Positions 1,316-63,988 of a stretch of 64,000 nucleotides of DNA are shown one piece after another (position 1 is the stretch's first letter; each line of letters opens with the position of its first letter). This stretch comes from Thermodesulfobacteriota bacterium (lineage in GTDB: Bacteria > Desulfobacterota > Thermodesulfobacteria > Thermodesulfobacteriales > Thermodesulfobacteriaceae). Made by a program: the position numbers and the translations under genes. The stretch is from assembly GCA_030550555.1 (NCBI GenBank), contig JAUQPD010000007.1, positions 17,563-81,562 of the forward strand, read 5' to 3'. Below the pieces are notes generated by a model, which was given only the letters and a program-made list of their open reading frames with translations, had not been told where the DNA came from and made no database searches.

Positions 1316-1342
1316 ATGCCCTACCCCCTCGTTAAGTTGAAA

Positions 1343-1699: not shown

Positions 1700-1728
1700 A
1701 TTTACCTCCCTCAATGAAATTTACTCAA

Positions 1729-2058
1729 TTAGAGCACGAGATACTTTCCTACCTCTTCAAGCAGTTCACCATGGAAGGCCTGAGTCCTTAGTTGATTAGC
1801 GGTAAGTTCACCTGCGTGATACTCTGGTTCAAAGCCTTCACAAGCAAGGGCAGCAACACAGATAGCAAAGTCCTCTTCTGGCACCATCTCCTTTAGTCTC
1901 TTAAACTCGGGATGAAGGACTAAATGAGTTGCCTTGAAGGTAAAAAAAATCTTTACCTTTTTTCCCTTTCTCTGACAGGCCTCAACAATCTTCACCAGTT
2001 CATTTATATGAACTGGTGAGGTAACGAATATTCCAAGCTTATCTGGATCCTTAGCCAT
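1729..2058 (-). CDS. DsrE/TusD-like sulfur relay protein
   Basis: 109 aa with an SD (aggaggaggg). LGIFVTS...KIFFTFKATH...FAICVAALACEGF resembles the DsrE/TusD fold with a Cys in the CVAA(L) position. Confidence 0.75.
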   Translation of the reverse strand: MAKDPDKLGIFVTSPVHINELVKIVEACQRKGKKVKIFFTFKATHLVLHPEFKRLKEMVPEEDFAICVAALACEGFEPEYHAGELTANQLRTQAFHGELLEEVGKYLVL

Positions 2059-2072
2059 GCCCTCCTCCTACT

Positions 2073-2318
2073 CTATTTTTTCTTGATGAAGAATCTTGTG
2101 TATCCCGTTTCTTCTATCATACCGAGAAATTCGTAGCCCTCTTTTTCACACATCTTTGGTATGTCATTCTTGCTTCCAGGATCAGTGCTTAGGACCTCCA
2201 AAATTTGTCCAGATCCAAGCTTTTGCAGGGCCTTCTTTGTTTTTAACATCGGCATTGGACAAGAAAGCCCCTTGCAATCTAAAACTTCATCTGGCTTAAT
2301 AGTGCTGAGATCAACCAT
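2073..2318 (-). CDS. tusA: TusA-family sulfurtransferase
   Basis: 81 aa. It has the canonical LDCKGLSCPMPMLKTKKAL (CPxP) motif and an SD (aaggagggg). Confidence 0.9.
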   Translation of the reverse strand: MVDLSTIKPDEVLDCKGLSCPMPMLKTKKALQKLGSGQILEVLSTDPGSKNDIPKMCEKEGYEFLGMIEETGYTRFFIKKK

Positions 2319-2358
2319 AGCTCCCCTCCTTAGAGTTAGTTTTCACCATCAAAAATTT

Positions 2359-3525
2359 TTATAATCCTATAACAAACTTTTCTGACTTTTCATTCCAATC
2401 AACAAAAAGATACCAGAGGATTATGATTAGAGCAAGGAGAATAAAGGCACCACCATAACCAAAATAATCTGGCAAAAACACAGCTCCACCAAGCCAGCCC
2501 TTGTCCCAAACTTCCCAAACGTTGTCAAGATAGTATCTTAAAATGGAATTAGTTAACGCGAAAAAGATAACAACTATCATCAACTTTACTTGGCCCTCTG
2601 CCACCCTCCAGAGTGCACCAGACCCACATCCACCAGCAACAACCATGGCAGCACCAAAGATTAAGCCTCCAATTAGGGCTCCCCAAACAAAAGTAGGCGT
2701 TACATAGGTCATAGGTTCTCTAATGCCCGCCATTTTAATCAAAAGAATTCCAAAAGTTGCAATTAAAATACTCAAAGCAACTCCCCTTGCCATTTCTGCT
2801 TCTCCGGAGAGGAAAGGCTCTCTAAAGGAATTGACAATACAAAATCTGCTTCTGTGCATAACAAAGCCTATACAAGCGGTTAACAATAGAGCACCTCCAA
2901 GTAGGAGTCCTTCCTCACTATCGCTACTAAAATAGGCATAAATGCCATACAATAAAATTGCAAGTGCAATTATTCCAAGTACAGGATTGATTTTCTTAGT
3001 AGAGATCTCAATGCCACCTGAGGAACTAAAGTGCTCAAGTTCCCAAAGTAAATATTTTACGCCGATAAAGACACCTACAACAAGTCCTAACATCATGGCA
3101 ATTCCACTTGCGGAAAGATTGGCAATTGCCATATAGAAGCCACCAATGTTGCACCCCTGTGCAAGAGCAGACCCAATTCCCATAAGAATTCCTGCAACTA
3201 TTGCCTTTATTATCTCCAGTCTTGGCGGAATTCTAAGACCAAACTCATTAGCAAGGGTAGCAGAGATAAAAGCCCCAAGAATAAGACCAATATTGAGAAC
3301 TGATGAAGAAAACCAGAGGGGATGTGGTGGAGCCTCCTCAAGGAATCCAATTCCATAAAGAACCCATTCACCCCAGTTTCTCAAACCACCAACAATTCCC
3401 CATGGGCGATACCACATCTCAAGAAGAATTACAAAAAGCGCAAGTAAAATACCTCCAGTAATAGGACTATAATTGTTTTTAAAAACAGTTTGATAAAGAC
3501 CCTTTAGACTTTCACTAAAAGACAT
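2359..3525 (-). CDS. YeeE/YedE-family (TsuA-like) sulfur-compound transporter
   Basis: 388 aa and polytopic. It has two repeats, each with a conserved Cys loop (LAQGCNIGG and VAGGCGSGAL). SD is caggagggggg. Confidence 0.9.
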   Translation of the reverse strand: MSFSESLKGLYQTVFKNNYSPITGGILLALFVILLEMWYRPWGIVGGLRNWGEWVLYGIGFLEEAPPHPLWFSSSVLNIGLILGAFISATLANEFGLRIPPRLEIIKAIVAGILMGIGSALAQGCNIGGFYMAIANLSASGIAMMLGLVVGVFIGVKYLLWELEHFSSSGGIEISTKKINPVLGIIALAILLYGIYAYFSSDSEEGLLLGGALLLTACIGFVMHRSRFCIVNSFREPFLSGEAEMARGVALSILIATFGILLIKMAGIREPMTYVTPTFVWGALIGGLIFGAAMVVAGGCGSGALWRVAEGQVKLMIVVIFFALTNSILRYYLDNVWEVWDKGWLGGAVFLPDYFGYGGAFILLALIIILWYLFVDWNEKSEKFVIGL

Positions 3526-3553
3526 ACCCCCCTCCTGAGGAAGTTTTGTGAAT

Positions 3554-3581
3554 ATATTATTAAAGCTTCTTTTATTGTCAA
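3554..3581 (-). promoter_or_regulatory. Sigma70-like promoter for the YedE-TusA-DsrE cluster
   Basis: The minus strand reads TTGACA-N16-TAATAT about 30 nt upstream of the yedE start. Confidence 0.5.
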
Positions 3582-3603
3582 GGGCAAATTTTTTCGTAAA
3601 TAA

Positions 3604-5745
3604 CTAAATAAATATGATCCAGTCTGCAAGTTTATCTGCTAAGGGATGAGGTTCTCTTATCATTATAGTCAGACCCTCCTCTGTAATTTTCTTTAAGAAT
3701 TTTTTCAACTCCATAAGTTCACCAATTGAGAGCCCTTGAAAGGGATGCGTTAACACTATTATCTGATTTGTTTTACGCTCTATAAGTGTTTTTACCAAAT
3801 TTACTCTAAGCAATTCACCACCTGAGAGTTCTCTCAATCTCTGAGAAAGTTTCAAGTAGTCCACCTTTAGGTCTCTCACAAGACTAAGAATATCTCGGAC
3901 TTTGGGAATCTGAGAGAAAAGTTCCAAGGCCTCTTTCAGGGAAAAATCAAGAATCTCCCTCACCCTATAACCTCTGTAAGTTAAAGCCAAAATCTCCGGA
4001 TTTAATCCCTTCCCAGAGCACTCCTCACAAGGGATTTTAAAGTTTATGTCTTGCAGGCTAATCTCCCTTTCTCCTTTTCCTTTACAGCGTTTACAGGTGC
4101 CCTCGGTTGTATGGAAACTGAAATGGCGTTTGTTGAATCCTCTAATCCTAGCATCAGGCGCCTCCCTGAGAACATCCCTCCAGACCTCCCAAATTCCCAA
4201 GTAATCAATCAGAAACCTATCCTTAACACTACTAGAAACCTGTTCTCCACAAAAAACCTTTAGCCCTAGACTCTTTAAGCTTTGTATGAGCTCTCTAATA
4301 AGGCCCTCTTCATCTTCAAGTAGAGAAAATTTGAGCAAATTTATTGCCCTCAAGTAATACCTATATTCCCTTCCCCGCAAATAAAAACTCTCAGGTTCTC
4401 CTTGAAGAGTAGGTTTATCTTCAGAACTTTGGAAAAATTCATATTTTGTCTCTGGAATCTGTAAACCTTCATAGGTTGCAATTAGATAGCCCCCTCTCTC
4501 TCCTCCCTCGGGTCCAAGCTCAATAACAAAGTCTGCAGACTTGATAAAGAGTGGATCGTGTTCAACAACTATGCAAGAATTTCCCTCATCAACGAGGCCT
4601 CTAAAAAACTTTAAGAGGACCTTTCTCCTAGCTTCATCAAGGCCAAGTGTTGGTTCATCAAAAATATAAAGGACTCCTCTCATTTTGATAGCAAGAGCAA
4701 GGATTAACTCAAGAAGTTTCCTAACCCCAAGGGACATCCTAAAAACTGGTCTGTCTAAAGGTAGTGCAGTGATTCTTAGGTCCTCAATTGGACCCTGTAG
4801 CTGTAGAAAATGAGGAAAATAAACCGAAACGAGGTCCAAAAACTCTGCAAGGGATAGTCTAAGAATGGTCTCAATTTCTCTATTTAGGAGAAGGCTCTTT
4901 AGAACAGCAGGACTCAATTTTAGGCCTTTGCAAACTGAACAAGGCTCCCTCTCTTTGTAACCAAGTCCTCTACATTGGGGACACTTTCTTAGGCCAAAGT
5001 AGAGAGGCTCTTCACAATTTAAACAATAGGCCTCAAAATTGAAAATCTCTTCAGCACCTGATAGAGCTTTCAGCTTAACCTTCCCCCTATTAATTGAGAA
5101 GGAGAGGGATATTGCCTCAAGAATACGTCTTCTTAAGTCACCAGTCTTTATCAGACGGTCAAGAATAACAAATACCTCTTGAGGCTCTTTTTGGAGCTCC
5201 TCCTCTGAGAGATCTATTTCTCTACCATCAATAAGGTAACGAGTAAACCCTAAAGAGAGAAGATAATTTAATGCCTTGAGAGAGGTCTCTTTAATCGGAG
5301 CAAGGACATAGAACTTTTCCCCATCAGGCAAAGTCTCTATCCAATTTAAGACATGGTGAACTTTACTTAATCTGTTTAGATTCCCACATTTAGGACAGGA
5401 GAGCTCTCCAAATTCTAAAAAGAGATATTCCAAAATAGGTATAAATCCAAGAATTTCACAAACATTCTTGTAGGGGAACCAATCTCTGGCCCCTTGAGAA
5501 AAGGCTACAACTGGAGGGAAAGCACCAGTAATTTCTGCAGGAGCACTACAGTAGTCGAAAAGTAGAGTTCCACAATTTTCGAGAAGAAGCATTCGCTGTT
5601 TTCCTAATTTAGCTATCGTGTCAAAAACAAGGGAACTTTTTCCCGAACCTGAGGGACCAGTGATGACAACGAGCTTATTAAGAGGGATGTCAAGATCAAA
5701 ACCCTTTAGGTTATGCGTAAAGACCTTTCGAAGTTGTAGATACAT
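3604..5745 (-). CDS. UvrA-like ABC ATPase paralog, shortened (713 aa) with degenerate motifs
   Basis: The N-terminus THNLKGFDLDIPLNKLVVITGPSGSGKSSL is UvrA-like. It has CxxC zinc modules (CPKCG, CLNCE, CPQCRGLG, CSVCKG, CKRCKGKG, CEECSGKG). Walker B is YIFDEPTLGLD. A second LSGGE is present, but I found no second Walker A. Confidence 0.8.
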   Translation of the reverse strand: MYLQLRKVFTHNLKGFDLDIPLNKLVVITGPSGSGKSSLVFDTIAKLGKQRMLLLENCGTLLFDYCSAPAEITGAFPPVVAFSQGARDWFPYKNVCEILGFIPILEYLFLEFGELSCPKCGNLNRLSKVHHVLNWIETLPDGEKFYVLAPIKETSLKALNYLLSLGFTRYLIDGREIDLSEEELQKEPQEVFVILDRLIKTGDLRRRILEAISLSFSINRGKVKLKALSGAEEIFNFEAYCLNCEEPLYFGLRKCPQCRGLGYKEREPCSVCKGLKLSPAVLKSLLLNREIETILRLSLAEFLDLVSVYFPHFLQLQGPIEDLRITALPLDRPVFRMSLGVRKLLELILALAIKMRGVLYIFDEPTLGLDEARRKVLLKFFRGLVDEGNSCIVVEHDPLFIKSADFVIELGPEGGERGGYLIATYEGLQIPETKYEFFQSSEDKPTLQGEPESFYLRGREYRYYLRAINLLKFSLLEDEEGLIRELIQSLKSLGLKVFCGEQVSSSVKDRFLIDYLGIWEVWRDVLREAPDARIRGFNKRHFSFHTTEGTCKRCKGKGEREISLQDINFKIPCEECSGKGLNPEILALTYRGYRVREILDFSLKEALELFSQIPKVRDILSLVRDLKVDYLKLSQRLRELSGGELLRVNLVKTLIERKTNQIIVLTHPFQGLSIGELMELKKFLKKITEEGLTIMIREPHPLADKLADWIIFI

Positions 5746-5749
5746 CCTT

Positions 5750-7480
5750 TTACTTTTGATTTCGGTCTCTTACCCATCTCAACCAGTTCATAAAGTCTTC
5801 ATACTCCAATATATTTAATAAATTCTCTCTTTGGCACCAGCCTCTTCTTGCAACTGCAACTCCATATCTTAGATACTCCATTTGATCAACAAAGTGGGCA
5901 TCAGAACCAATTATTAAGGGTATGCCTCTTTCTACGCAGGCCTTAGTGTTGATATCATTGAGGTCAAGTCTTTTGTAGTAAGCATTTATCTCAAGGGCTT
6001 TGCCGTAGCTCTTTGCAGTCTCCATCACCTGATTTAGGTCAACCGCGTAGGCCTCTCTTTCTCCCAATACTCTTCCAGTTGGATGAGAAATGGCATGGAC
6101 CAGAGGATGTTTGAGGGCAGAGACAATTCGTGAAGTCAGCTGTCTTTCATCTTGCTGAAAACCTGTATGAATAGATGCTATAACAAAATCTATCTCTTTT
6201 AAGACCTCGTCAGGATAGTCAAGAGTTCCATCAGAGAGAATATCGACCTCGGCTCCAAATATCAACTTTACACGTTCAGACCTCTTGTTTAGTTCTTCTA
6301 TTCTTGCCTTTTTCTTAAAAAGATCCTCAACAGGGACTCCTCCTGCAACCTTAAGACTCTGAGAATGGTCGCAGACTGCAACCCAAGAAAGGCCCATAGC
6401 AGAAGCCTTAGATAAAATTTCTTCAAGGCTAGCGGTGCCATCACTATACTTAGAGTGAACGTGCCCATCTCCTTTAATTTCATTATACTCAACGAGGACA
6501 GGCAATTTCCCCTGAAGAGCGGACTCGATCTCACCTCTATCCTCTCTTAGCTCTGGAGGAATAAAGGGAAGCCCAATTGCAGAATATACCTCCTCCTCGG
6601 TCTTACCTGCAATTTTTTGATCGCCTCGAAATACGCCGTATTCATTTATTTTAAGTCCCCTCTCAAGGGCAAGTTCTCGCACTCTGATATTGTGAGCCTT
6701 TGATCCCGTAAAATAGGCAAGGGCAGCACCCCAACATTCGGGATCTACCACCCTGACATCCATTTGAATACCTAATCTTAGTCTTACACTTGTTTTCGTT
6801 TCCCCAAAGGCTATTACCTCTTCAACAAGAGGAAGACTTGCCACAACCTTCATCACTTCTTCAGGCCTTTCAGAGGTAATTAGGATATCTATATCTTTTA
6901 CTGTCTCTCGCATCCTACGAATACTTCCTGCTATGGCAATTTCCTTGATGGGAGCTCTTGCCTTGATAAGCTTGACTATCTCCTCAGCAAGAGGTAACAC
7001 CTCACCAAGAGGTTTCCTTCCGGTCCTCTCTTTAAAAAGCTTAATACCCTTGAGAATATTTTCCTCAGTTTTTAATCCAAAGCCAGGAAGCCTTGCAATT
7101 TTGTGCTCAAGACAGGCCTTTTCAAGTTCTTCGAGGCTGGTTATACCATACTTTTCATAGATCGCCTTTACTTTTTTCGGCCCAAGACCGGGAATTTCTA
7201 AAAAGGTAAGTAGTGTTTGAGGAATTTCTCTCTTCAGTTCTTCATAAAGGAAAAATGTCCCCGTTTTTAAGATCTCTCTGATCTTCGATGCTAGATCTGC
7301 ACCTATTCCAGGTAGATTCTCAAGCTTACCTTCCCTTGCCAACTCCTCTATGTCTTTTGTAAGAGATTCAATCGTTTGAGAGGCCCTTTCATAGGCCCTT
7401 ATCCGATAGGGATTGTCTCCTTTAATCTCCAGTAGCTTAGCTGTTTTCCTAAGAATCTCTGCAACTTCTTTGTTTCTCAT
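5750..7480 (-). CDS. polX: Family X DNA polymerase with C-terminal PHP domain (PolX)
   Basis: 576 aa. It has HhH motifs (LPGIGADLA, IPGLGPKK), a Pol-beta nucleotidyltransferase motif GSIRRMRETVKDIDILI, and a PHP domain HVHSKYSDG...CDHS. Confidence 0.9.
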   Translation of the reverse strand: MRNKEVAEILRKTAKLLEIKGDNPYRIRAYERASQTIESLTKDIEELAREGKLENLPGIGADLASKIREILKTGTFFLYEELKREIPQTLLTFLEIPGLGPKKVKAIYEKYGITSLEELEKACLEHKIARLPGFGLKTEENILKGIKLFKERTGRKPLGEVLPLAEEIVKLIKARAPIKEIAIAGSIRRMRETVKDIDILITSERPEEVMKVVASLPLVEEVIAFGETKTSVRLRLGIQMDVRVVDPECWGAALAYFTGSKAHNIRVRELALERGLKINEYGVFRGDQKIAGKTEEEVYSAIGLPFIPPELREDRGEIESALQGKLPVLVEYNEIKGDGHVHSKYSDGTASLEEILSKASAMGLSWVAVCDHSQSLKVAGGVPVEDLFKKKARIEELNKRSERVKLIFGAEVDILSDGTLDYPDEVLKEIDFVIASIHTGFQQDERQLTSRIVSALKHPLVHAISHPTGRVLGEREAYAVDLNQVMETAKSYGKALEINAYYKRLDLNDINTKACVERGIPLIIGSDAHFVDQMEYLRYGVAVARRGWCQRENLLNILEYEDFMNWLRWVRDRNQK

Positions 7481-15927: not shown

Positions 15928-16707
15928 ATGGGAACCCGTGTTCTTGTTGTTGCTGGTTTTGATCCTTCAGGGGGTGCTGGTTTACTCCTTGACACAAAGA
16001 TGTTAACACTCCTTGGTCATTGTGTTGCCTCAGTTCCAACTACCTTAACTCTTCAGAATACAAAAACCTTTGAAGACTGGGAGCCCTTAAAAACTAGGCT
16101 CTTTGAGAGAATGCTTAAGCTCACACTTGAAGATACCCCTGTTGAAGGGGTAAAAATTGGAATGCTTGGAACCCAAGAGATATTGGAGATAACAGGGCAT
16201 TATTTGAGAAAATATAGATCTCAAATTAGATGGATTGTCCTTGACCCTGTTCTGAAGGCAACACTCCATAAGGACCTCTTTCAAGGGGAAAATTTTCTCA
16301 ATATACTCAAAAGTGAACTCTTGCCCTTAGTTGATGTTATCACCCCAAATATTTTTGAAGCAGAAACTCTTTCTAAACGACCTATAACTACCACTGAAGA
16401 CTTAAGAGAGGTTGCTCAGTACTTAAGTAGCTTTGGTGTAAAGATTCCGCTCATTACTGGGTATAGAAAAGGAGGAAGAATCTACAACTATCTTATGATT
16501 GATGGCAAGATTAGAGGTTTCTCTGTCAGGGAGCTCCCCTTGGAATTTCATGGAACAGGATGTGCCCTATCCTCTCTCCTTCTTGGTTACTTATTACTTA
16601 CAAATACTCCAGTAAAGGCTCTAAGGTTAGCTATGAGAAAACTTAGAAAAATACTAAAATTAAGGGCTTCCAATCCATTATCCTCTGAATTACAATTAAT
16701 TCACTGA
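15928..16707 (+). CDS. thiD: Hydroxymethylpyrimidine/phosphomethylpyrimidine kinase
   Basis: 259 aa. VLVVAGFDPSGGAGLLLD and the GTGCALSS motif are present. Confidence 0.85.
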   Translation: MGTRVLVVAGFDPSGGAGLLLDTKMLTLLGHCVASVPTTLTLQNTKTFEDWEPLKTRLFERMLKLTLEDTPVEGVKIGMLGTQEILEITGHYLRKYRSQIRWIVLDPVLKATLHKDLFQGENFLNILKSELLPLVDVITPNIFEAETLSKRPITTTEDLREVAQYLSSFGVKIPLITGYRKGGRIYNYLMIDGKIRGFSVRELPLEFHGTGCALSSLLLGYLLLTNTPVKALRLAMRKLRKILKLRASNPLSSELQLIH

Positions 16708-16746
16708 TTTCCCCTACAAAAAGATCTCTATCAACAAGGAGGACCT

Positions 16747-18234
16747 TTGATTTTGGAGCTTGAACAGGACGTTAGGAATAGTTTCTTTGAGCTTCTTGCC
16801 TTTCCAGAAAAAGGGTTACTTCTATCTCTTTTGAGAAAGTTTAGGTACAGGGACGATATTTACGTTGTTGGCGGTGCGGTTAGGGATCTCTTTTTTGGTC
16901 GAAGAATTTATGATCTGGACCTTGCGGTAAAACATGATCCACAGAAATTTCAGCTCTTCCTTGCAGAGAGACTCAAATACACTCCAGTTCCTCTCTCTCA
17001 AGAGTTCGGAATTTACAGACTAGCAAAAGGTAATTTAACAATTGACATCTGTCTCTATAGAGGAGAGACCATTGATGAAGATCTTAAGAATAGAGATTTT
17101 ACTATTAACTCCCTTGCTATTCCCATAAGATCTCTATTTGAAGGTCCAGTTATTCTTGTTGACCCGACCTGCGGACTAAGGGACCTAAAGTATGGAATTA
17201 TCAGGACCTTTTCACGAAAAAACATACTGGATGATCCTTTGAGAATTCTGAGAGCATATAGGTTTTTCTCTCAGGGATATGGGACCATAGATAGTAGTAC
17301 AAGAGAAATTTTTGCGGAGCTCTGGAGTCAAATGCAAGAGGTTGCTGGGGAGAGAATAAATCTTGAATTAAAACAGATACTACTTAGTTGTAGGGCCTAT
17401 GAAGCCTTCTGCCTTATGGCAGAGGATAGTGTTCTCTACTCTTTGATTCCAGAACTTGCCAAATGTAGAGGCATCAAACAGCCTTCATTTCATCATCTCG
17501 ATGTTCTCAATCATCTTCTTGAAGCTATGGGTTCTGCAGAGAAGATTCTGCTTAATCCAAGGGGCTATCTTCCTTTGGAGGAATTACCAAGAGAATTTGA
17601 AGATGAAGACTTTATTCAGGTGGTCAAACTGGCAAGCCTTCTTCATGATCTCGGAAAGGGTTATACTTATGCTATAGATGAAGACCGAATCACCTTTTAT
17701 GGTCATGAAAAAGTTGGTGCTGAGTTGTGGGAGGAGAGAGCCAAAGTCCTCAGATTTAAAAGTGAGATTATTGAAAGGGTAAGTAGGCTAATAAGAAATC
17801 ACATGAGACCATGTCATCTACTTAGAGAATGGGAAGAAGGGCGCCTTACTTTGAGAGCTAAAAGAAATCTTTTAAAGGATCAACCTTCCCTTTATGAACT
17901 TTGGATTGTAGCTCTCGCAGACTCACTTGCTTCAAAGGGACCTGATAAAGAGCCTGATTACGAGGAGAGACTTAACGCTTTCTTTTTGGAGATTTTAAAA
18001 TTTCAAGGAGAGATGCTAAGGATTGAGAAAAAAGAGCGTTTGATAACTGGGAATGATTTAATCAACTTAGGTTTTGTCCCAGGACCTCTCTTTAAAATAA
18101 TTCTTGAGGAGATTGAAATTCAGGTCCTTGAGGGAAAATTGAAAACGAAAGAAGAAGCTATCAAATATATTCTCTCTAAGTATGGCAATCAGCGACAAGG
18201 AAAAGAGGGAAATCAATCAGTTTGCAGAGCTTGA
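16747..18234 (+). CDS. cca: CCA-adding enzyme / poly(A) polymerase family nucleotidyltransferase with HD domain
   Basis: Head-domain motif VVGGAVRDLFFGRRIYDLDLAV, RDFTINSLA, and an HD region LLHDLGK...GHE. It has a TTG start, so the start is uncertain. Confidence 0.8.
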   Translation: MILELEQDVRNSFFELLAFPEKGLLLSLLRKFRYRDDIYVVGGAVRDLFFGRRIYDLDLAVKHDPQKFQLFLAERLKYTPVPLSQEFGIYRLAKGNLTIDICLYRGETIDEDLKNRDFTINSLAIPIRSLFEGPVILVDPTCGLRDLKYGIIRTFSRKNILDDPLRILRAYRFFSQGYGTIDSSTREIFAELWSQMQEVAGERINLELKQILLSCRAYEAFCLMAEDSVLYSLIPELAKCRGIKQPSFHHLDVLNHLLEAMGSAEKILLNPRGYLPLEELPREFEDEDFIQVVKLASLLHDLGKGYTYAIDEDRITFYGHEKVGAELWEERAKVLRFKSEIIERVSRLIRNHMRPCHLLREWEEGRLTLRAKRNLLKDQPSLYELWIVALADSLASKGPDKEPDYEERLNAFFLEILKFQGEMLRIEKKERLITGNDLINLGFVPGPLFKIILEEIEIQVLEGKLKTKEEAIKYILSKYGNQRQGKEGNQSVCRA

Positions 18235-32028: not shown

Positions 32029-32233
32029 GCCCCTAGCATTTTCCCTGTATCAGCTAAATTAATTACAAATTTTATTAAAAAAATTATAGAAATTCCTTTA
32101 ATAATTTGCTTTAGTTTTTTTAAGTTTTCAAAAAATAAGGAAATTTTCCCTTGACGATGGCCCTTGAAACTGTAAACTACAATTTTAAAAAAAGGTTAAT
32201 ATCTCATAAAAAAACTTTAAAGGAGGAGGGGTT

Positions 32234-33550
32234 ATGAGGTATTCGCGTGGTGCCCTATTTAAACCTTTAGTGGTTCCATTGATTTTTTTAGTTCTTCTCT
32301 TTTGGGGCAGCTTTAGTGCACTCCACAGTGCATCCCAACCTGCTGAGAAAAAGATCAAGGGGCAGGTCACCGCGGTTGCAGTTACGATTCAAACCATTAC
32401 TGTTCAACAGAGAGATCAGAGAATCAACATTAAGTGGGACAAAAACACTGTTTTTAAACACATCGATCCTGCAAAGATTAGAGAAATTCAGGGACAAGAG
32501 GTTGAGGTCACCTATGTAGAAGTTGGCGGACAAAATATTGCCAAGGTTATAGCACTTGCGGTTGTAGAAGTGCCCCCTGGGGCTAAGGAGATTAAGACAA
32601 ATGAACTAGCAAAGCTCATTGCTGAAAAACCAGGAACTTTTGTTCTTATTGACTCAAGACCACCTGCAAGATTCAGAGCATCCTATATTCCCACAGCAAT
32701 CAATCTTCCAATATCTGTAATGGAGAGACTTGGTGAAGCATCCTTACCTTTCCCCAAGGATAAGACCCTTATTTTCTACTGTGGAGGCGTTACCTGACCT
32801 TTCAGTCCAAAAGCGGCCAGTTTGGCCCTAAAGTGGGGTTTCAAGGATGTTAGAGTTTATCTCGAGGGAGAGCCTGCTTGGAAAAAGGCTGGTCATCCAA
32901 CCGAGTCCACCTTTGACTATGTTAGGACGGAAAACATTGTTCTCATTGACCTAAGAGATCCTCAGGTAGTTGAGAAAACGGGGTTCATTCCCAAGGCGGT
33001 AAATGTTCCTCTTGCAAAGCTTCCTGAGTATGAGGATAAATTTCCAAGTTTTAGAAGAGCACCTATTGTTCTCTACTCTGACAAAAAAGAAGACGCCCTT
33101 AAGGCCTTCAAGATTATCCGTGAGTGGGGCTATCCCAATGTAACTATCTTAGGTGGTGGGATTCAGTCCTGGATTTTCCAGGGGCTTGATCTTGCAACTG
33201 GTCCTATAGCTAAGGAGATAACCTATCAGAGAAGATATCAGCCCCATGAGGCATCTCCACAGGAGTTCATGAAAGCTGTCCAGGAGGGTAATGCGGTAAT
33301 AATAGATGTCAGAATGCCTCACGAATATCAAAAGGGCCATTTTAAAGGTGCAATCAACATTCCAGTCGATGATATCATCGCAAAGGCCGACCAGATTCCT
33401 AAGGACAAACCTATATATCTCTATTGTGCTACCGGTGTGAGAGCAGAAATGGCAATGCATAATCTGAAGAGAGTCTGCCCAACTTGTAACGTAAAGATTC
33501 TTGCTGCTGAGATCGAATGCGAAGGCAATAATTGCACCATCAGCGAATAA
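32234..33550 (+). CDS. Exported triple-rhodanese-domain protein read through an in-frame TGA at 32795-32797 (candidate selenocysteine, codon 188). This merges track ORFs 32234..32797 and 32822..33550.
   Basis: The two ORFs share a frame, with only the TGA plus 8 sense codons between them. The TGA splits a single rhodanese fold (LIFYCGGVT-TGA-PFSPKAASLALKWGFKDVRVYLEGEPAWKKAGHP). The downstream ORF has only a TTG start and no SD. A hairpin follows the TGA. Confidence 0.6.
32807..32836 (+). other. Candidate bacterial SECIS-like hairpin downstream of the in-frame TGA
   Basis: The core stem GGCCA-GUU-UGGCC spans 32815..32827, with 17 nt separating it from the TGA. It may be extended by CCA/UGG (32807-09 with 32834-36) around an A-rich internal loop. 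Confidence 0.35.
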
Positions 33551-33557
33551 TTCCATC

Positions 33558-33587
33558 TGCAGGCACAGGCCTACCCCTGTGCCTGCA
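33558..33587. terminator. Perfect 12-bp GC-rich hairpin between convergent genes (no strong T-tract)
   Basis: tgcaggcacagg-cctacc-cctgtgcctgca starts 8 nt after the rhodanese stop. Confidence 0.5.
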
Positions 33588-42820: not shown

Positions 42821-44068
42821 ATGCCAGAATGTCTACCCTTCTGTGGTTACCTCTACAATAAAGAAAAGGTCAGTATCCAGGAGGTTCTTGCTCCTCCCTA
42901 TGATGTTGTAGACGAAAAAGAAATAGAATTTTATAAAAATAAGTCTCCATATAACATATTCCATCTTGAATTACCTGAAACACCACAAAAAGCAAAATTA
43001 CTTTTAGATAAACTAATTGAAGAGCAAATTCTTGTAAGAAATTCTATACCCACAATATATTACCATGAACTACATTTCCGTTTTCGAAATAAAGCTCATA
43101 TAAGAAAAGGATATATTTTATTAGTAAAACTATACGATTATGAAGAGCGCATTGTAATACCTCATGAACATACCTTTAAAAAAGTAACAGAAGAACGTTT
43201 TGAACTGCTTAAAACTACTCAATTTCAATTTAGTCAAATTCATGGCCTATATGATGATCCAACTCTTTATACATTAAATCTTGTAAATAATTTCAACAAT
43301 TTATATTTTGAAGTATCACTTAATGAAGAAATTCATAAACTTTATAAAATTCAAGATGATGAAATAATATCAAAATTAACTGACTTCTTACTTGGTAAAA
43401 AAATATATATAGCTGATGGACATCATCGCTATAATACAGCCTTAAAATATAAAGACTATATGAGTAAAATACATGGAAATAATAAAAATAAAGATTTCAA
43501 TTTTATGGCAATGTATCTAACACCTATTGATGACCCTAATCTGTTAATGTTACCAACTCATAGACTTTATACCTTTGAAGATGTAACTATTTTTTTACAT
43601 AGAATAAAACCCTTTACTGAAGTATTACATAGACATAAAAAAAATTCTCTAGAAGAAATAATTGAAAGCTATAACAATAGAGGAGATATCTTTATAGTAT
43701 TAACCGATACTGAAACTTATATTGTCAAAATTAGATCTGATATCTATGAAATCCTGTGTGAGAAAGAACCTGAGCTTTCAAAGCTTCCATTGTTTTCTTT
43801 TCTGTATATTCTCAAAGAAACCTTTCATATTACTGAAGAATATCTTAAAGAAAAAGGATTGGTTAAATTTTTTTCTGATCCCCAAAGACTTAGTCAGGAA
43901 CTCCAGATGCAGAGAGGATTTGGAGTCCTTTTTCCTGCTGTGTCACCCCTTGTCCTAAAGGAGGTGACCATAGGTGGAAAGCTTATGCCCCACAAGTCAA
44001 CTTACTTTTATCCTAAGATCCTCTCAGGACTTGTGATCTCAGAGGTAAGTGGCAAGTCTCTGCGATGA
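42821..44068 (+). CDS. DUF1015-family protein of unknown function
   Basis: 415 aa. N-terminal VLAPPYDVV and central ADGHHRY match my recollection of the DUF1015 family. The ATG directly abuts the cupin stop codon. Confidence 0.65.
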   Translation: MPECLPFCGYLYNKEKVSIQEVLAPPYDVVDEKEIEFYKNKSPYNIFHLELPETPQKAKLLLDKLIEEQILVRNSIPTIYYHELHFRFRNKAHIRKGYILLVKLYDYEERIVIPHEHTFKKVTEERFELLKTTQFQFSQIHGLYDDPTLYTLNLVNNFNNLYFEVSLNEEIHKLYKIQDDEIISKLTDFLLGKKIYIADGHHRYNTALKYKDYMSKIHGNNKNKDFNFMAMYLTPIDDPNLLMLPTHRLYTFEDVTIFLHRIKPFTEVLHRHKKNSLEEIIESYNNRGDIFIVLTDTETYIVKIRSDIYEILCEKEPELSKLPLFSFLYILKETFHITEEYLKEKGLVKFFSDPQRLSQELQMQRGFGVLFPAVSPLVLKEVTIGGKLMPHKSTYFYPKILSGLVISEVSGKSLR

Positions 44069-44574
44069 GAGACTCTATTCTCTACTTTACGCGACTCAAA
44101 GAGTTTTATGGTCAACACATGGAGTCGTTTCTTGAAAAGGATAGTTTCTTTAGGGAGAAAGCCCTGCAACTTAGAGAGGCTATCTCTAAGACAAAGAAAG
44201 CCTATATAGAGCATGGCTCTTTTGAGTTCTGTAGAGTTTGTGCTCAAAAAGGGGTTCGGTGTTGTGGGGAAGGCCTTGAGTGGAAACTCCGCCCTGAGGA
44301 ATTCTTCATCAACCTTTATCTCTCAAGGCTTGAAGAAAGAGATCTCAAACTTGAGGATAGGAGAGCTCAAGACTGTCTGTTTTTAGGAGAATTTGGTTGC
44401 ATTCTAATTCTCACTCCTCTTTTCTGCAGGAACTTCTTTTGCAAAGAACTTTCAGAATTTCTTGGACACAAAGGCCTTGTCCATCTTCAAAATGTAATTC
44501 AGGATGAAGCAGAGCTTACCTTTAAGCTTTGCGAATATTTGAAGAAAAAATTTCCTCGGATTTTAACTCTATGA
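44065..44574 (+). CDS. Cys-rich hypothetical protein (possible metal or Fe-S binding)
   Basis: 169 aa with a 4-nt ATGA overlap with the DUF1015 gene. Cys pattern: CRVCAQKGVRCC ... DCLFLGEFGC ... FCRNFFC. It is loosely YkgJ-like, but the spacing differs. Confidence 0.5.
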   Translation: MRDSILYFTRLKEFYGQHMESFLEKDSFFREKALQLREAISKTKKAYIEHGSFEFCRVCAQKGVRCCGEGLEWKLRPEEFFINLYLSRLEERDLKLEDRRAQDCLFLGEFGCILILTPLFCRNFFCKELSEFLGHKGLVHLQNVIQDEAELTFKLCEYLKKKFPRILTL

Positions 44575-58921: not shown

Positions 58922-60307
58922 ATGAGAGAAAAGATCCTAATTGCAAATAGAGGGGAGATTGCTCTAAGAATAATGGAAGCCTGTGAACTTTTAGAACTTG
59001 ATTATGTTGCAGTATATACAAAGGAGGATGAAGAATCTCTTCATGTAAGGCGTGCCAAAAAGAAATATCGCATTTCTGACTATAGGGACATGAATGATCT
59101 CCTTGCAGTAGCAGATGAAGAAAAATGCATAGCCATTCATCCGGGATACGGTTTTCTCTCTGAGAATTATAGGTTTGCAAGGAGAGTAATAAAGCGGGAA
59201 AGACCTCTTATTTGGATAGGTCCATCCTGGGAAGCTATTAGGGACTTAGGAAATAAACTTTATATGAAAAAGGTTGCTAAGGAACTGGGGATACCGATAA
59301 TTCCAGGCACAGTTGATCCTCTATATAACGAAATTGAAGCAGAGCTAAAGGCTGAGGAGCTACTTGAGGAAGCAGAAGCACAAGGTTTTGAAAGCATTTC
59401 ATTTCTTGTGAAAGCAGTTGCTGGCGGTGGAGGGATGGGGATTGAAGAGGTAAAGAATTTGGAAGAAATTCGTCCTGTTTTCAGAAGAGTCAGAGCCTAT
59501 GCCAAAAGACTTTTTGGTGAAGAGGGAATAATTATTGAGATAAAGATACCAGTATTTCAGCACCTCGAAGTTCAAATACTTGGCACCAAAGATGGTGAAT
59601 ATGTGCACTTTGGCACAAGAAATTGCACAATCCAGAGTCCTTTTAGACAAAAAAGAATAGAACTTGCCCCAGGATTTTGTGAGCGGTTTCAATTCAATTT
59701 TGATCCAAAAGCAGTAGAATCTGCAATTATCAACTATTCTCTTAAGCTTGCTCAGCACTTTAATTATGATAGCGTTGGCACCTTTGAATGGTTAATAACA
59801 CCTGATGGTAAGTATTATTTAATGGAAGTCAATACTAGAATTCAAGTTGAGAATGAAATTTCAGCTAAAATATCCTTTATTAATGGAAAACAAGTTAATC
59901 TTTTGAGAGAACAGATTCGAGTTGCCCTCGGTGATAAATTGGGTTACAGTCAGGAAGACATAGAATTTAGAGGAATGAGTCTTGAATTCCGCCTAATTGC
60001 TGAAGACACAAGAAGAGGATTTATGCCTCTTAGTGGAACTATTACAAAATTTCAATTTCCTGACTATCCTTGGTTGACGGTTAGGACCCATGTGCCTCAA
60101 GATAGGCCCTATGTGATACCAACCCAATTTGACCCAAATCTCGCATTAGCTATAATTTATGCAGAAGATCTTGAAAACCTTCTTGAACGTAGTCGTAGAT
60201 TTCTTGATGAAGCCATTATAGAGGGAATTACTCCAAAGGGAGATCCCTTGATTACAAACATTCCCTATTTGAAAGAAAAACTTGCATTAATATACCAATT
60301 TATATAA
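58922..60307 (+). CDS. Biotin carboxylase-like ATP-grasp enzyme (divergent AccC)
   Basis: Motifs: KILIANRGEIALRI, IHPGYGFLSEN, Gly loop KAVAGGGGMGI, EVNTRIQVEN, EFRLIAED. Confidence 0.85.
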   Translation: MREKILIANRGEIALRIMEACELLELDYVAVYTKEDEESLHVRRAKKKYRISDYRDMNDLLAVADEEKCIAIHPGYGFLSENYRFARRVIKRERPLIWIGPSWEAIRDLGNKLYMKKVAKELGIPIIPGTVDPLYNEIEAELKAEELLEEAEAQGFESISFLVKAVAGGGGMGIEEVKNLEEIRPVFRRVRAYAKRLFGEEGIIIEIKIPVFQHLEVQILGTKDGEYVHFGTRNCTIQSPFRQKRIELAPGFCERFQFNFDPKAVESAIINYSLKLAQHFNYDSVGTFEWLITPDGKYYLMEVNTRIQVENEISAKISFINGKQVNLLREQIRVALGDKLGYSQEDIEFRGMSLEFRLIAEDTRRGFMPLSGTITKFQFPDYPWLTVRTHVPQDRPYVIPTQFDPNLALAIIYAEDLENLLERSRRFLDEAIIEGITPKGDPLITNIPYLKEKLALIYQFI

Positions 60308-60332: not shown

Positions 60333-62555
60333 ATGATGAACCCAGTTGAAATTCACAAAAAGCTTAGGGAACTTTTGGAGCTAGCAGAATATGTGAGAGA
60401 CATAAAAGGTGAGGACTTTGAAGGTATAGAGGAACTTTATAGAGAAATACACAGGACCTATCACAATTTTTATGAATTGCCTCCAGAGGATATAGACAAC
60501 CTTTCAAGAGAGTGGGAATTTAAGCTCAAAAACATTCTAGAAATTGCAGAAAAAACGCTTACACCCTATGAGATAGTTAAGATAGTTAGACATCCTCAGC
60601 GATTTACTCTTATGGATATTTTAGAAAATGTTTATGACAGTTTTATGGAACTTGGTGGTGAGGGAGAGTTAAATATAGATCCTGCAATTGTATGTGCAAA
60701 GGCTTTGATTAGTAGAAGAGTTGGTGACGAAGTATATTTTCACCAGGTGATGGTTATTGGGCATGAAAAGGGTCATGGTGAGGAGTATAGAAGAGGCGGA
60801 AGTGCTACTCCTTGGGGCAATGAAAAGGCCCTAAGATATATGAGAATGGCTGAAACAGAAGGAATTCCTATCCATTTCTTTATCTTCACTCCAGGAGCCT
60901 ATCCTATTGAGGACTATCCAGGTGCAGCTCAACAGATTGCAAGAAATCTCTATTATATGAGCAAATTGTCTGTACCTACTATATCTTTCATCTCCGAAGG
61001 GGGATCAGGGGGAGCAGAGGCAATTGGACTGACAGATCTGAGGCTAATGGCTGAAAAGGGTTATTATTCTGTAATTAGTCCTGAAGGGGCAGCAGCTATT
61101 GAAGCCAAATTGAAGGATGAAAGACCTCCTAGAGAGCTTGTGGAGAAGATGGCAAAGGCTCTCAAGTTAACTGCCCGTGACAATTTGGAATTAGGAACAA
61201 TTGATCGCATTATCCCTGAGCCTCCGCTTGGAGCAAGAAGAAAAGATTATGAGTTCTTTAAAAGACTTAAAATTGAGTTAATAAAAGCAACTGATGAGGT
61301 TGTTCTTCAGACTAGAAGCCTAAAGGTCCTGAGGAAATATGCTCTTTCAAAACATAGTGAAGAGGGATTTCCATTCTATATAAATTGGGAGCTCTCTGAG
61401 GATGAAAAGGAGGTTCTTTTAGAAAATCGTAGGAAAAAATATAGAGAAATGACCCGATGGGCGGTTCTTGAAAGTAAAGGGATCTGGAAAAGTCTCTCAG
61501 AAAAAGGTGTAAGGATAACTCAGAACCTTGCCTATGAAGTAAAATATCAAATTTTCAAGAGGGGACAGAAAACATTTAAGAGATTTTGGGATGAACTTTG
61601 GAGTGAATCTTCTATACTTCTTAAACCTGTATCAGATCCTGTTAAGAGTGTATATAATCTCATTGTAGGAAAAAAGGTAAAACCTAAGGTGAGGATTCTT
61701 GCAGATTTAGAGGAAGACACTTTTACCTATCAGAGTCCTCTTGCTCTTCAGGATCGCACTGTAACTTGTCCACAAGCTGAAAAGTACGGCTGTCCTGATT
61801 TATGGGTGCCTGATCTTTACGGTGAGTTCTGTGGAGTTTGTCCCAGTTGTGGATATCATTTCCCTCTAGAGTATTACTGGTATCTTAATAACATATTTGA
61901 CAAAAATTCAATTAAGTTTTTCAACGAAGATCTAAGTTCCTGTAATCCATTGAATTTTGAGGGATATGCAGAAAAACTAAAGAAAGCAAGGGAGGAAACA
62001 GGACTTAACTCTGCGCTACTCTCATTTGAGGCAAAGATTGGAGGAATTTCTTTAATTGCTGTTATGCTTGTTGCAGATTTCAGACAGGGAACCGTAGGAG
62101 TAGCTGAGGGTGAAAAGTTTATTAGGGCAATAGAGCTTGCAATGGTCTCTAGAAGACCCTTTCTTGCCCTTGTGCATACGACTGGGGGAATCCGAATTCA
62201 TGAGGGAACAACTGGAGTTGTTCAAATGCCAAGATGCACTATGGCTGTAAGGGAGTATGTTGATAGTGGTGGTCTTTATATAGTGGTCTATGACAACAAT
62301 TCCTATGCAGGACCTGTTGCTAGCTTTCTCGGATCTGCCCCTTATCAATTTGCTCTCAAATCTACTCGTCTTGGTTTTGCAGGACCGAGAGTTATTCTTG
62401 AAACAACTGGTCAACCAGTTCCGCCAGACTATCACAGCGTAGAAAATGCCCTTAAAAGAGGCCACATTCAGGGTATTTGGGATAGAAGGGAATTGAGAAA
62501 GAAATTATTTTTTGCTCTCCTCACAATGGGCGGACCAAATCTCTATTACAGGTAA
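60333..62555 (+). CDS. Fused acetyl-CoA carboxylase carboxyltransferase, with an AccA-like N-half and an AccD-like C-half
   Basis: The N-half has VRHPQRFT, IGHEKG, TPGAYP, EGGSGGA and VISPEGAAAI (AccA). The C-half has a Cys cluster ending CPSCGYHF and then GFAGPRVI (AccD). A linker of about 130 aa joins them. Confidence 0.85.
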   Translation: MMNPVEIHKKLRELLELAEYVRDIKGEDFEGIEELYREIHRTYHNFYELPPEDIDNLSREWEFKLKNILEIAEKTLTPYEIVKIVRHPQRFTLMDILENVYDSFMELGGEGELNIDPAIVCAKALISRRVGDEVYFHQVMVIGHEKGHGEEYRRGGSATPWGNEKALRYMRMAETEGIPIHFFIFTPGAYPIEDYPGAAQQIARNLYYMSKLSVPTISFISEGGSGGAEAIGLTDLRLMAEKGYYSVISPEGAAAIEAKLKDERPPRELVEKMAKALKLTARDNLELGTIDRIIPEPPLGARRKDYEFFKRLKIELIKATDEVVLQTRSLKVLRKYALSKHSEEGFPFYINWELSEDEKEVLLENRRKKYREMTRWAVLESKGIWKSLSEKGVRITQNLAYEVKYQIFKRGQKTFKRFWDELWSESSILLKPVSDPVKSVYNLIVGKKVKPKVRILADLEEDTFTYQSPLALQDRTVTCPQAEKYGCPDLWVPDLYGEFCGVCPSCGYHFPLEYYWYLNNIFDKNSIKFFNEDLSSCNPLNFEGYAEKLKKAREETGLNSALLSFEAKIGGISLIAVMLVADFRQGTVGVAEGEKFIRAIELAMVSRRPFLALVHTTGGIRIHEGTTGVVQMPRCTMAVREYVDSGGLYIVVYDNNSYAGPVASFLGSAPYQFALKSTRLGFAGPRVILETTGQPVPPDYHSVENALKRGHIQGIWDRRELRKKLFFALLTMGGPNLYYR

Positions 62556-62561
62556 TCGACG

Positions 62562-63218
62562 ATGAAGATAGACTTCTCTCAATTAACAGAGCTTCTTCAA
62601 GAGTTAAAACAAAATCCCTACAAATTATACCCTGTCTATACTCCTCATACTGGAAAAATTTTAGAATTTTTGGTCAAGGAAGGTGATGCTGTTAGGGGGC
62701 CAACCGGGACCTGGCTCGAGAAACCTGGAACACCTCTCTTTGTTCTTGAACGAGAAAAAAATCCCAAGATTATTAGAGCATCCCATAATGGAATTGTACA
62801 AGATCTCAGATTAGACCTTGTCAATAAATTTGTTGAAGCTGGTGAACAGGTCTTAACCATCAGACATCCCCTTTCTCAAGAAGAAGTCATATCTGAAATC
62901 CTATTATCTGCTCTCTTAATAGTGAGAGCTCCCGAGACCGCAAGATATATTTTAAGTCCTGATCTTGCTAAAAAACTTGAAAAGGAAGGACTTGGAAAGG
63001 TTAGAGTTAAAACTGGTGACGAGTTGCTAATTATGACCTTTATGAAAAGAGAAACTCCAATTACATTGAGTCAAGAAGGACAATTTGTAATTTTTCAACT
63101 GTATTTTAAGCCATTCGAATTAGTTCAAAGTGGCTCACCTCTTATTGGACTCTGTCCTGTAGAGGATCTTCCCAACCTGGAAAAGTTGATTACTCGTATA
63201 AAAGAAGAGTGGTCTTAA
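62562..63218 (+). CDS. Biotin-carrier-like protein with two biotinyl/lipoyl-like domains (non-canonical)
   Basis: The C-terminal domain VKTGDELLIMTFMKRETPI...GSPLIGL aligns to the BCCP hairpin (EAMKM becomes TFMKR). The N-terminal domain VYTPHTGKILEF.VKEGDAV...LFVLEREKNPKIIRA...GEQVLTI has EREK at the same place. Confidence 0.5.
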   Translation: MKIDFSQLTELLQELKQNPYKLYPVYTPHTGKILEFLVKEGDAVRGPTGTWLEKPGTPLFVLEREKNPKIIRASHNGIVQDLRLDLVNKFVEAGEQVLTIRHPLSQEEVISEILLSALLIVRAPETARYILSPDLAKKLEKEGLGKVRVKTGDELLIMTFMKRETPITLSQEGQFVIFQLYFKPFELVQSGSPLIGLCPVEDLPNLEKLITRIKEEWS

Positions 63219-63988
63219 GTAAAAGTCTTTCTCTCCCTTCTGTCATAGGGGGAGAAATCTGGTTTTTCCCGACTTTACAAAGTGGCTTTGAAAAGGCAAG
63301 AGAGCTTTTAGAACTCTACCCTAAGACTGCTCATGGACGCATCATAGTTGCTGGAGAAATCCTCCATGCAAAGGGTCGATTTAAAAGAATTTGGTATGCA
63401 AGTAAAGGTGGACTTTGGATAAATATTACACTTTTTGATGAACTATATGAGGAAAGCAAAGGATTGCTATCACTTATCTGGGGACTATCAATCGTCAGAA
63501 CCTTGAGAGAACTAAAGATCAATGAGGCCTATGTTAAGTGGATAAATGATGTTCATGTTAAAGGAAAAAAACTTGCAGGAGTCCTTCAAGAGCATGTGGG
63601 AGAGTGGATTCTTATTGGTATCGGAATAAATATAAACAATGAAATACCTTACAATCTTCCTGCAATAAACCTTAAACATATCTTAGGCTATGAAATATCA
63701 CCTTATTACTTCCTTGGTAAACTATTGGGGTGGATAAATCATTATTATAGCCTAATATGGGATTTAGAAAAAAAAGAAGAAAATATATTAGACCAAAATC
63801 CTATAATAGAGGATATGAAAAAACTTTCAGACACTATTAATAGATGTGTCTACTACAGTTATAATCTCGATATTCCTAATAGCGGAGTATATGGTTATAC
63901 TAAAGGTTTCACTAACAAAGGAGGACTTCTTCTTGATACCGGTGAAGTCCTCCTTGAACTTTATTCTGGTGAAATACTTTATTTATAG
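63209..63988 (+). CDS. Biotin-protein ligase, catalytic-domain-only type (BirA-like, no HTH)
   Basis: The motifs AKGRFKRIWYASKGGLWINI and KWINDVHVKGKKLAGVL match the GRGRxGRxW.S..G.L and KWPND....KK.AGIL motifs of BPLs. It has a GTG start overlapping the upstream stop by 10 nt. Confidence 0.7.
   Translation: MVLSKSLSLPSVIGGEIWFFPTLQSGFEKARELLELYPKTAHGRIIVAGEILHAKGRFKRIWYASKGGLWINITLFDELYEESKGLLSLIWGLSIVRTLRELKINEAYVKWINDVHVKGKKLAGVLQEHVGEWILIGIGININNEIPYNLPAINLKHILGYEISPYYFLGKLLGWINHYYSLIWDLEKKEENILDQNPIIEDMKKLSDTINRCVYYSYNLDIPNSGVYGYTKGFTNKGGLLLDTGEVLLELYSGEILYL

Follow-up and report, generated by a model that had tools for sequence, protein, structure and literature searches.

Whether a TGA codon in an otherwise open frame ends a protein or is decoded is the question raised by one locus in a stretch of 64,000 nucleotides (nt) from a Thermodesulfobacteriota bacterium (GenBank assembly GCA_030550555.1, contig JAUQPD010000007.1; this whole stretch is below called the window). 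Two open reading frames (ORFs), 32234..32797 and 32822..33550, share one frame and are separated by the TGA at 32795-32797 and eight sense codons (PFSPKAAS). Reading through this TGA gives 438 codons ending at the TAA at 33548-33550. An earlier, sequence-only reading had joined the two ORFs in the same way into a protein of 438 amino acids (aa), and the frame analysis agrees with it. The TGA, which stands in a UGA-C context as codon 188 of a single plus-strand gene (32234..33550, TAA included), is very probably read as selenocysteine (Sec), judging from the sequence and its homologs, and the product would be one exported sulfur-handling protein with three rhodanese domains. There is equally high confidence, on the same grounds, that 32234-33550 constitutes one gene for an exported protein of about 48 kDa.

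The homologs provide the first line of evidence. Among the best 120 that were retrieved, 98 span the TGA column, and 97 of these have a cysteine in this position as part of a conserved FYCGGxTCxxSP motif. The column Cys is at least 90% conserved in the family, for which the consensus is FYCGGxTCxLSPK; the rhodanese subfamily with a YCxGxxCxxS loop that the sequence-only reading had mentioned is thus real. Some 20 database "proteins," 246-250 aa long, start with a Met two to three residues past the column, which identifies them as mis-called Sec forms. The DNA of loci L001-L004 reads YCGGPT-TGA-GMSPK, and in two such lineages the upstream fragment has been called as a gene of its own. A scan of metagenome contigs for the DNA pattern FYCGGxT-TGA-xx-[S]P revealed TGA at the column in at least 120 contigs. 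Most of them have about 190-230 open codons before the TGA and 245-270 after it, except where the contig is cut at its end. Homologs with either Cys or TGA at exactly the same column, which had been named beforehand as support for Sec, are accordingly both found. In a rough neighbor-joining tree of 147 sequences the Sec and Cys forms are interleaved, with at least about 10 switches between Cys and Sec, and the nearest neighbor of the window sequence is a Cys form.

Sec forms are present in public databases, recorded as two genes (P0055, P0085, P0086, P0098, and about 15 more homolog matches). Entries from metagenome-assembled genomes (MAGs) at NCBI call the approximately 247-aa C-terminal piece "rhodanese," and no full-length entry annotated with U was seen among the database matches listed. 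Treating two such "rhodanese" fragments as one exported selenoprotein would correct an error that is widespread in public annotation.

In bacterial Sec insertion, SelB recognizes a hairpin with a conserved GU loop. A hairpin resembling a bacterial selenocysteine insertion sequence (bSECIS) is found at 32815..32827 on the plus strand (GGCCA-GUU-UGGCC), with its apical loop about 21-22 nt past the UGA, and it encloses the TTG at 32822. Its geometry fits the published model for bacterial SECIS elements according to bSECISearch-type criteria, including a G in the apical loop. It is proposed that SelB and Sec-tRNA, directed by this stem-loop, would recode UGA codon 188 to Sec. The residue would then occupy the sixth position of the active-site loop of the first rhodanese domain (C183-G-G-V-T-U188), where nearly all homologs carry a second Cys.

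The register of the hairpin is fixed in the Sec forms, at alignment columns 19-35, with numbering from the T of TGA. The four core pairs form in 96-100% of the Sec forms compared to 42-97% of the Cys forms, and 87.6% of the cells are paired in the Sec forms, against 34-48% in controls where the 3' arm was slid. Pair 21:33 alternates between CG (36) and UA (34). These two columns are the third positions of Ser and Ala codons (TCC...GCG or TCT...GCA), and the covariation therefore takes place at synonymous sites. GU is found at loop columns 26-27 in 94 of 103 Sec forms, but in only seven of 78 Cys forms, while a stem of at least 4 bp combined with the GU loop is present in 90 of 102 and three of 78, respectively; the window has both. 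The mean minimum free energy for positions +15 to +42 is -9.6 kcal/mol in the Sec forms and -5.0 kcal/mol in the Cys forms, though the GC content is lower in the Sec set, and a rank test of the folding energies over +12 to +45 gives p about 1e-11. A covariance model built from 76 Sec-form elements, leaving out the window, identified the window site as unique (31.0 bits, E 1.4e-6), the next match scoring 11 bits. The sequence-only reading had suggested a search for a SECIS element downstream of the TGA; carried out in this equivalent form, the search came out in its favor, with a hairpin that belongs specifically to the TGA forms and shows both covariation and conservation at synonymous sites.

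Three loci encode Cys at the column (TGC or TGT) and yet have an intact hairpin with the GU loop: L011 (6559-6615), L060 (5676-5732), and L086 (6298-6354). The element of L011 obtains 58 bits with the Sec-form covariance model. These hairpins look like fossil SECIS elements left behind by a recent reversion from Sec to Cys.

The window's own lineage can be followed more closely. The closest ortholog, L010 from an uncultured Caldimicrobium MAG, is 68% identical by tblastn and has TGC at the site; it is this one ortholog that places the window's lineage near Caldimicrobium. The peptide downstream of the site, SPKAASLALKWGFKDVRVYLEG, is identical in L010 and the window, while all five codons of its AASLA part differ synonymously. 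L010 uses GCT GCT TCT CTT GCT, which gives no hairpin (-3.1 kcal/mol, 12.6 bits), and the window uses GCG GCC AGT TTG GCC, which gives the hairpin (-8.3 kcal/mol, 31.0 bits). The pair is an unusually clean case of a SECIS hairpin made wholly by synonymous codon changes. Identity between the window protein and L010 is 72% after the TGA and 64% before it. Five independent Logan assemblies agree on the TGA. In the 90% cluster of the 187-aa upstream fragment, seven different alleles, which carry as many as 18 substitutions (10% divergence at most), all end at codon 188. Compared with the diverged strain L210, half of the codons differ; there are 85 synonymous and 18 nonsynonymous codon differences upstream of the TGA, and 57 synonymous and nine nonsynonymous ones downstream with no extra stop. 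The sequence 3' of the TGA is under purifying selection. The longest run of identical codons relative to L210 comprises 10 codons (194-203) and starts exactly at the hairpin. By shuffling, a run of this length covering the hairpin codons has P about 0.003, while P is about 0.14 for such a run anywhere.

The five assemblies, the seven alleles, and the comparisons with L210 and L010 therefore exclude, for practical purposes, that the TGA is a sequencing error, that the gene is a pseudogene, or that there are two genes. A sequencing or assembly error, which the sequence-only reading had wished to see excluded, has a probability close to nil and is refuted for practical purposes, as the site is the same in all five assemblies, in the diverged alleles, and in two further diverged strains. 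A single base change from the TGC of the closest ortholog to TGA could have created a pseudogene by nonsense mutation. This reading is nevertheless very unlikely when the TGA is kept in seven alleles, when the codon differences downstream are mostly synonymous and bring in no further stops, when identity to L010 is greater downstream than upstream, when five synonymous changes have built a hairpin, and when the same TGA is found in at least 120 unrelated contigs. The prospects are just as poor for a reading in which the TGA is a true stop and two polypeptides are made, one exported with 187 aa and the other, of 242 aa, started anew at TTG 32822. Gene callers do annotate two genes both here and in many public records, and from general knowledge of bacterial Sec insertion some stopping at a Sec UGA is to be expected under selenium scarcity. 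Termination would, however, break a rhodanese domain between its loop and its helix, and the downstream piece would lack a signal peptide. No Shine-Dalgarno (SD) sequence can be read ahead of the internal TTG (32822-32824), as had been pointed out earlier, and this codon lies within the hairpin. In other lineages the corresponding "start" is a Met at differing positions, and there is therefore no conserved start. A genome-wide reassignment of TGA was also considered and ruled out because TGA is the ordinary stop for 12 of 50 window genes.

The one serious rival, although an improbable one, is that the UGA is read through as Cys or another standard residue, either by a tRNA-Sec-like tRNA-Cys (selC*) or by near-cognate suppression. 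Genes for selC* tRNA-Cys occur in Thermodesulfobacteria, and one such tRNA gave Cys at UGA in a reporter. Cys is moreover the ancestral residue at the column, and the UGA-C context is a leaky one. On the other hand, every Thermodesulfobacteria genome with selC* also carries a complete selABCD set, and no selC*-type tRNA is found in the window. The SECIS-type hairpin with its conserved GU loop is a SelB target. Changing TGY to TGA merely to restore Cys would be without evident benefit, yet the switch has recurred at least about 10 times.

Several observations weigh against Sec at codon 188, or limit what can be built upon it. Neither selA, selB, nor selD is found among the approximately 50 ORFs of the window annotated with NCBIfam, and ARAGORN detects no tRNA-Sec (selC) in the window, the sole tRNA being tRNA-Asn. 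The competence for Sec insertion is therefore deduced from relatives and from the SECIS evidence. Thermosulfurimonas dismutans, which belongs to the same family as Caldimicrobium (Thermodesulfobacteriaceae), is reported to contain MccSep in a Sec form, together with a SECIS-like element. The hairpin is small, and the whole 91-nt region folds no better than shuffled sequences (z = +0.77). Rfam gave no match when 32600-33000 was searched with a permissive E-value, and only the tRNA-Asn when the window was searched at the gathering threshold; Rfam does not usefully cover bacterial SECIS elements. The covariance model was discarded as a means of discriminating Sec from Cys forms because many Cys-form loci score as well (9.6-58 bits), through shared coding sequence. 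In the comparisons of folding and pairing, the Sec and Cys sets come from different collections and search patterns and differ in taxonomic make-up. No sulfur-enzyme genes adjoin the rhodanese gene in the window, its neighbors encoding a PAS histidine kinase/receiver protein and a GGDEF protein. Finally, the redox-pair mechanism discussed below and its substrate are inferences.

The predicted protein matches the Pfam rhodanese family PF00581 in three stretches with 158.2 bits, well above the cutoff of 22.2. Its structure was considered using the AlphaFold model of a natural Cys ortholog, P0001, which is 66% identical and modeled with high confidence (pLDDT 94.2). Residues 1-33 (32234..32332) form a predicted signal peptide with a basic n-region (R2/R5/K10), a 17-residue hydrophobic core, and a cleavage site between HSA and S, while there is neither a lipobox nor a twin-Arg motif. 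These features indicate export through the general secretory (Sec) translocon. A helix of low pLDDT spans residues 7-23 in the model of the ortholog. The signal peptide is followed by a small all-beta domain of about 70 residues, at approximately residues 39-108 (32348..32557), which was placed from the model strands 33-102 of P0001 using an offset of +6, and for which no Pfam family was matched.

Rhodanese domain 1 covers approximately residues 122-218 (32597..32887), as placed by Pfam, NCBIfam alignments, and the model. The codons of its active-site loop, C183 to U188, are found at 32780..32797, and across the family this loop is either C-x4-C or C-x4-U. The TGA is positioned after ...LIFYCGGVT and before PFSPKAASLALKW. 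In the P0001 model a strand ends at the first loop Cys and a helix begins two residues past the second, so that it is the active-site loop of domain 1 that the TGA interrupts. The sequence-only reading had placed the TGA inside a single rhodanese domain, and this is borne out both by the Pfam stretches and by the position of the loop in the model. Domain 2, at approximately residues 227-315 (32912..33178), has an Asp at the position of the catalytic Cys (LYSDKKED) and is presumably inactive. Domain 3, at approximately residues 342-414 (33257..33475), has the classical C398-ATGVR loop; in the family consensus, the residues corresponding to C398 and R403 show at least 90% conservation, and the domain is further delimited by Pfam, a structure match, and the model. 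C183 and C398 are both placed at strand ends in the model, while domain 2 lacks the corresponding Cys. The earlier assignments of the Cys positions, of a domain 2 without Cys, and of the CATGVR loop are all correct by the sequence. The remaining Cys residues (415, 418, 429, and 434) are found in a C-terminal beta-hairpin tail (33476..33547; CPTC...CEGNNC). This four-Cys tail (CPTC...CEGxxC) is seen only in the window protein and in the Caldimicrobium ortholog L010 (about 5400-5474), and nowhere else in the family. The four residues could bind a metal or form two disulfides.

Sec evolves almost only at positions of redox-active Cys residues. This, together with the U-x4-U motif of TsoB, a protein with a DsbD-like part (see below), leads, at somewhat less than even probability, to the inference that C183 and U188 form a redox pair. 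It is tentatively suggested that this pair would resolve or transfer sulfane sulfur, and that domain 3 would be a conventional persulfide carrier. C183 and U188 would be a redox-active thiol/selenol pair forming a reversible selenenylsulfide or S-S(n)-Se bridge, and might take up, resolve, or pass on sulfane sulfur from polysulfide or thiosulfate in the periplasm of a sulfur-disproportionating organism resembling Caldimicrobium. Domain 3, with its CxTGxR motif, would form persulfides like an ordinary rhodanese. Sec would in this manner flag the second loop Cys as redox-active in a whole family of rhodaneses. Its members are plentiful in Desulfobulbales, Nitrospirota, Geobacter, Comamonadaceae, and Thermodesulfobacteria, and they offer a concrete, testable approach to sulfur disproportionation and polysulfide respiration, whose periplasmic steps are poorly understood.

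The conserved neighbors of the gene in other organisms point to periplasmic sulfur redox chemistry. Sec-form loci have a gene for a DsrE-like protein upstream, while genes for a 139-aa protein and for YeeE/YedE-type "sulphur transport" proteins are found downstream. The 139-aa protein, for which Pfam gave no match, is encoded in 12 of the Sec-form loci. A molybdopterin oxidoreductase is encoded near the rhodanese in 15 loci, comprising both Sec and Cys forms. In the betaproteobacterial loci L028, L035, and L038, an operon encodes an octaheme cytochrome c (PF11783, MccA-type), a cytochrome b561, a DUF3373 outer-membrane protein, a protein of about 106 aa, and then the rhodanese. Geobacter L013 has the same operon genes in another order and without the cytochrome b; in these four loci the genes are found at about 1200-7200. 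Cys forms of the family also occur in Desulfobulbaceae and in Desulfurivibrio. Periplasmic rhodaneses have been described as universal and highly expressed in cable bacteria, and as highly expressed in Desulfurivibrio too.

In L001 (1-5500) the Sec rhodanese is part of a longer run, consisting of genes for an HdrA-like FAD/FeS protein, a ferredoxin, a CCG-domain protein, DsrE, the Sec rhodanese, the 139-aa protein, and two Sulf_transp proteins. It is possible that this constitutes a sulfur-relay island connecting cytoplasm and periplasm. The window itself encodes, on the minus strand at 1124-3525, a YeeE/YedE-like membrane protein (2359-3525) that does not reach the NCBIfam cutoffs for YedE/FdhT or TsuA, a TusA (2073-2318; 96 bits with Pfam, CPMP motif), and three small ORFs (1729-2058, 1343-1714, and 1124-1315) with no Pfam match. 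This looks like a YedE-TusA "YTD-like" sulfur-relay cluster, located 30 kb from the rhodanese gene. A five-gene YTD cluster has been proposed as a marker of sulfur disproportionators, and the arrangement in the window resembles it, which fits a sulfur disproportionator.

The rhodanese gene is monocistronic in the window, with the gene for the PAS-histidine kinase-receiver protein divergent on one side and the GGDEF gene convergent on the other. An SD sequence (AGGAGG) is read at 32221..32226, 7 nt 5' of the ATG. A sigma-70-like promoter candidate at 32151..32178 (TTGACG, 16 nt, TAAACT) is a consensus match only; four promoter-like sites were found in the region, compared with 3.4 expected by chance. 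Just 3' of the stop, between the convergent genes, the inverted repeat GCAGGCACAGG...CCTGTGCCTGC (33559..33586) could be the stem of a terminator without a T-run, and the terminator scan did not call it.

The window contains one other junction where two ORFs in the same frame are separated by a TGA, at 16705. It was rejected as a Sec site: the TGA is the stop of thiD (15928-16707), and cca (16747-18234) follows after the TGA and 13 codons. The junction at 16705-16747 thus mimics a Sec junction while consisting of two unrelated complete genes. The window is otherwise an ordinary chromosomal stretch with the end of gyrB, hpt, recA, eno, trpD, uvrB, rsmB, a liv-type ABC system, argD, and rho, as well as lon, clpXP, tig, hemL, ilvC, leuCD, aspS, purA, acc genes, and birA. 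Its housekeeping proteins form no clusters with other sequences at 90% identity. One of the acc ORFs (60333-62555; 740 aa) fuses the alpha (residues 50-336) and beta (501-726) subunits of the acetyl-CoA carboxylase carboxyltransferase, and adjoins accC (58922-60307), a gene for a biotin-lipoyl protein (62562-63218), and birA (63209-63988). A UvrA-like protein of only 713 aa is encoded beside PolX on the minus strand (3604-5745). It obtains 331 bits in three stretches against a cutoff of 730 for the NCBIfam UvrA models (924-943 positions), and may be a truncated or class-II UvrA paralog. At 42821-44574, two successive ORFs have TGA as their stop; the first encodes a DUF1015 protein (415 aa), and the second (169 aa) matches nothing in NCBIfam or Pfam.

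Rhodanese-like proteins containing Sec have been predicted since at least 2005, and a selenoproteome review from 2026 lists five forms (PMC13188914), as the sequence-only reading had mentioned in more general terms. These five forms and the window protein have in common a rhodanese fold with Sec in or beside the active-site loop, predicted from Cys/Sec pairing and a SECIS element (PMC13188914). Form 1 is UxxS, exemplified by WP_010941598.1, and its descriptor (PF00581) fits U188-P-F-S191 of the window protein and U-G-M-S and U-R-L-S in relatives, a comparison made by descriptor only. S191 is invariant in the family. In a search bearing on form 1 and started from a Geobacter Cys form, the best 120 relatives included no match from G. 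sulfurreducens. Forms 2 and 4 (UxxG) appear, from their motifs, to replace the catalytic Cys, whereas the window protein keeps it and has Sec five residues later. Form 3 is C-x-U, in contrast to C-x4-U here. A Sec-containing rhodanese of this type is real but not unprecedented, and it may be equivalent to form 1, whose motif descriptor it fits.

Two selenoprotein-specific NCBIfam models, NF041203 and NF045694, each standing for one of the five forms, match domain 1. The first, rhodanese_LYCAU, also has Sec past a retained catalytic Cys and aligns to residues 116-225. The window protein falls outside it: its 70.6 bits stay below the cutoff of 115, and NF041203 is a model of a single 126-residue domain with the motif C-A-U rather than C-GGVT-U. 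The second is TsoB, for which the 2026 review lists WP_332113227.1, a rhodanese/DsbD fusion-like protein with the motif UxxxxU, which matches residues 118-228 and has the same four-residue spacing between the two chalcogen residues. By analogy, the DsbD fusion suggests that this type of loop may hold a redox-active pair. The window protein obtains 71.7 bits, over profile positions 44-161 only, where the cutoff is 805, and again falls outside the model. Unlike TsoB, the window protein has no DsbD part, one Sec instead of two, two additional rhodanese domains, and a signal peptide.

The exported three-domain C-x4-U protein might be none of the five catalogued forms and instead represent a distinct, redox-active class of rhodaneses forming a selenenylsulfide, but this is considered unlikely. 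If true, members of the class would join multiheme cytochromes or molybdoenzymes in the periplasm as partners in the reduction of polysulfide or sulfane sulfur, rather than being passive carriers, with a role in sulfur disproportionation and respiration. The sequence-only reading had also held that no periplasmic three-domain protein of this kind had been characterized. This stands insofar as no experimental work on the family was found. The claim to novelty is weakened by the five Sec-rhodanese forms already catalogued and by YnjE of E. coli, a rhodanese that is already both periplasmic and three-domain.

At the level of structure, the nearest solved proteins (1yt8, 6mxv, EanB, and YnjE) are domain-level matches only, with TM scores of 0.2-0.4. 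Sud and YnjE are periplasmic rhodanese-domain proteins that bind sulfane sulfur on Cys; Sud is a periplasmic polysulfide-sulfur transferase, while the structure of YnjE has been solved and only one of its three domains is active. Sud of Wolinella (PDB 1qxn) matches domain 3 (E 1e-7), and YnjE (PDB 2wlr/3ipo) is a fold match with E about 1e-9, both at the domain level only, with whole-chain TM scores of 0.2-0.25. Both lack Sec as well as a C-x4-C/U loop. Among solved structures, a loop of this type was found only in BH2092 of Bacillus halodurans (PDB 3nhv, 3o3w), with YCWGPAC compared to YCGGVT(C/U). BH2092 is a single-domain protein and not a selenoprotein, and is named "BH2092 protein" in PDB with no function given.

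The extHIJKL genes of G. sulfurreducens encode a 49-kDa rhodanese-like lipoprotein (ExtH), a porin (ExtI), a 104-aa protein (ExtJ), and ExtKL, which has been shown experimentally to be MccSep, a Sec-dependent periplasmic polysulfide reductase. The Cys-form operon of Comamonadaceae and Geobacter has the same list of parts, with DUF3373 as a possible counterpart of ExtI; its cytochrome is an octaheme of the MccA Pfam type while MccSep is pentaheme. Such an ExtH-type context, with a porin-like protein, a protein of about 105 aa, and a multiheme cytochrome, is found in up to about 24 Cys-form loci, but not around the window gene or in most Sec-form loci. ExtH is a lipoprotein, whereas the window protein has an ordinary predicted signal peptide. 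Both are exported rhodanese proteins of similar size, and the window protein might have a periplasmic role of the Sud or ExtH type, either carrying sulfur or serving as partner to a reductase.

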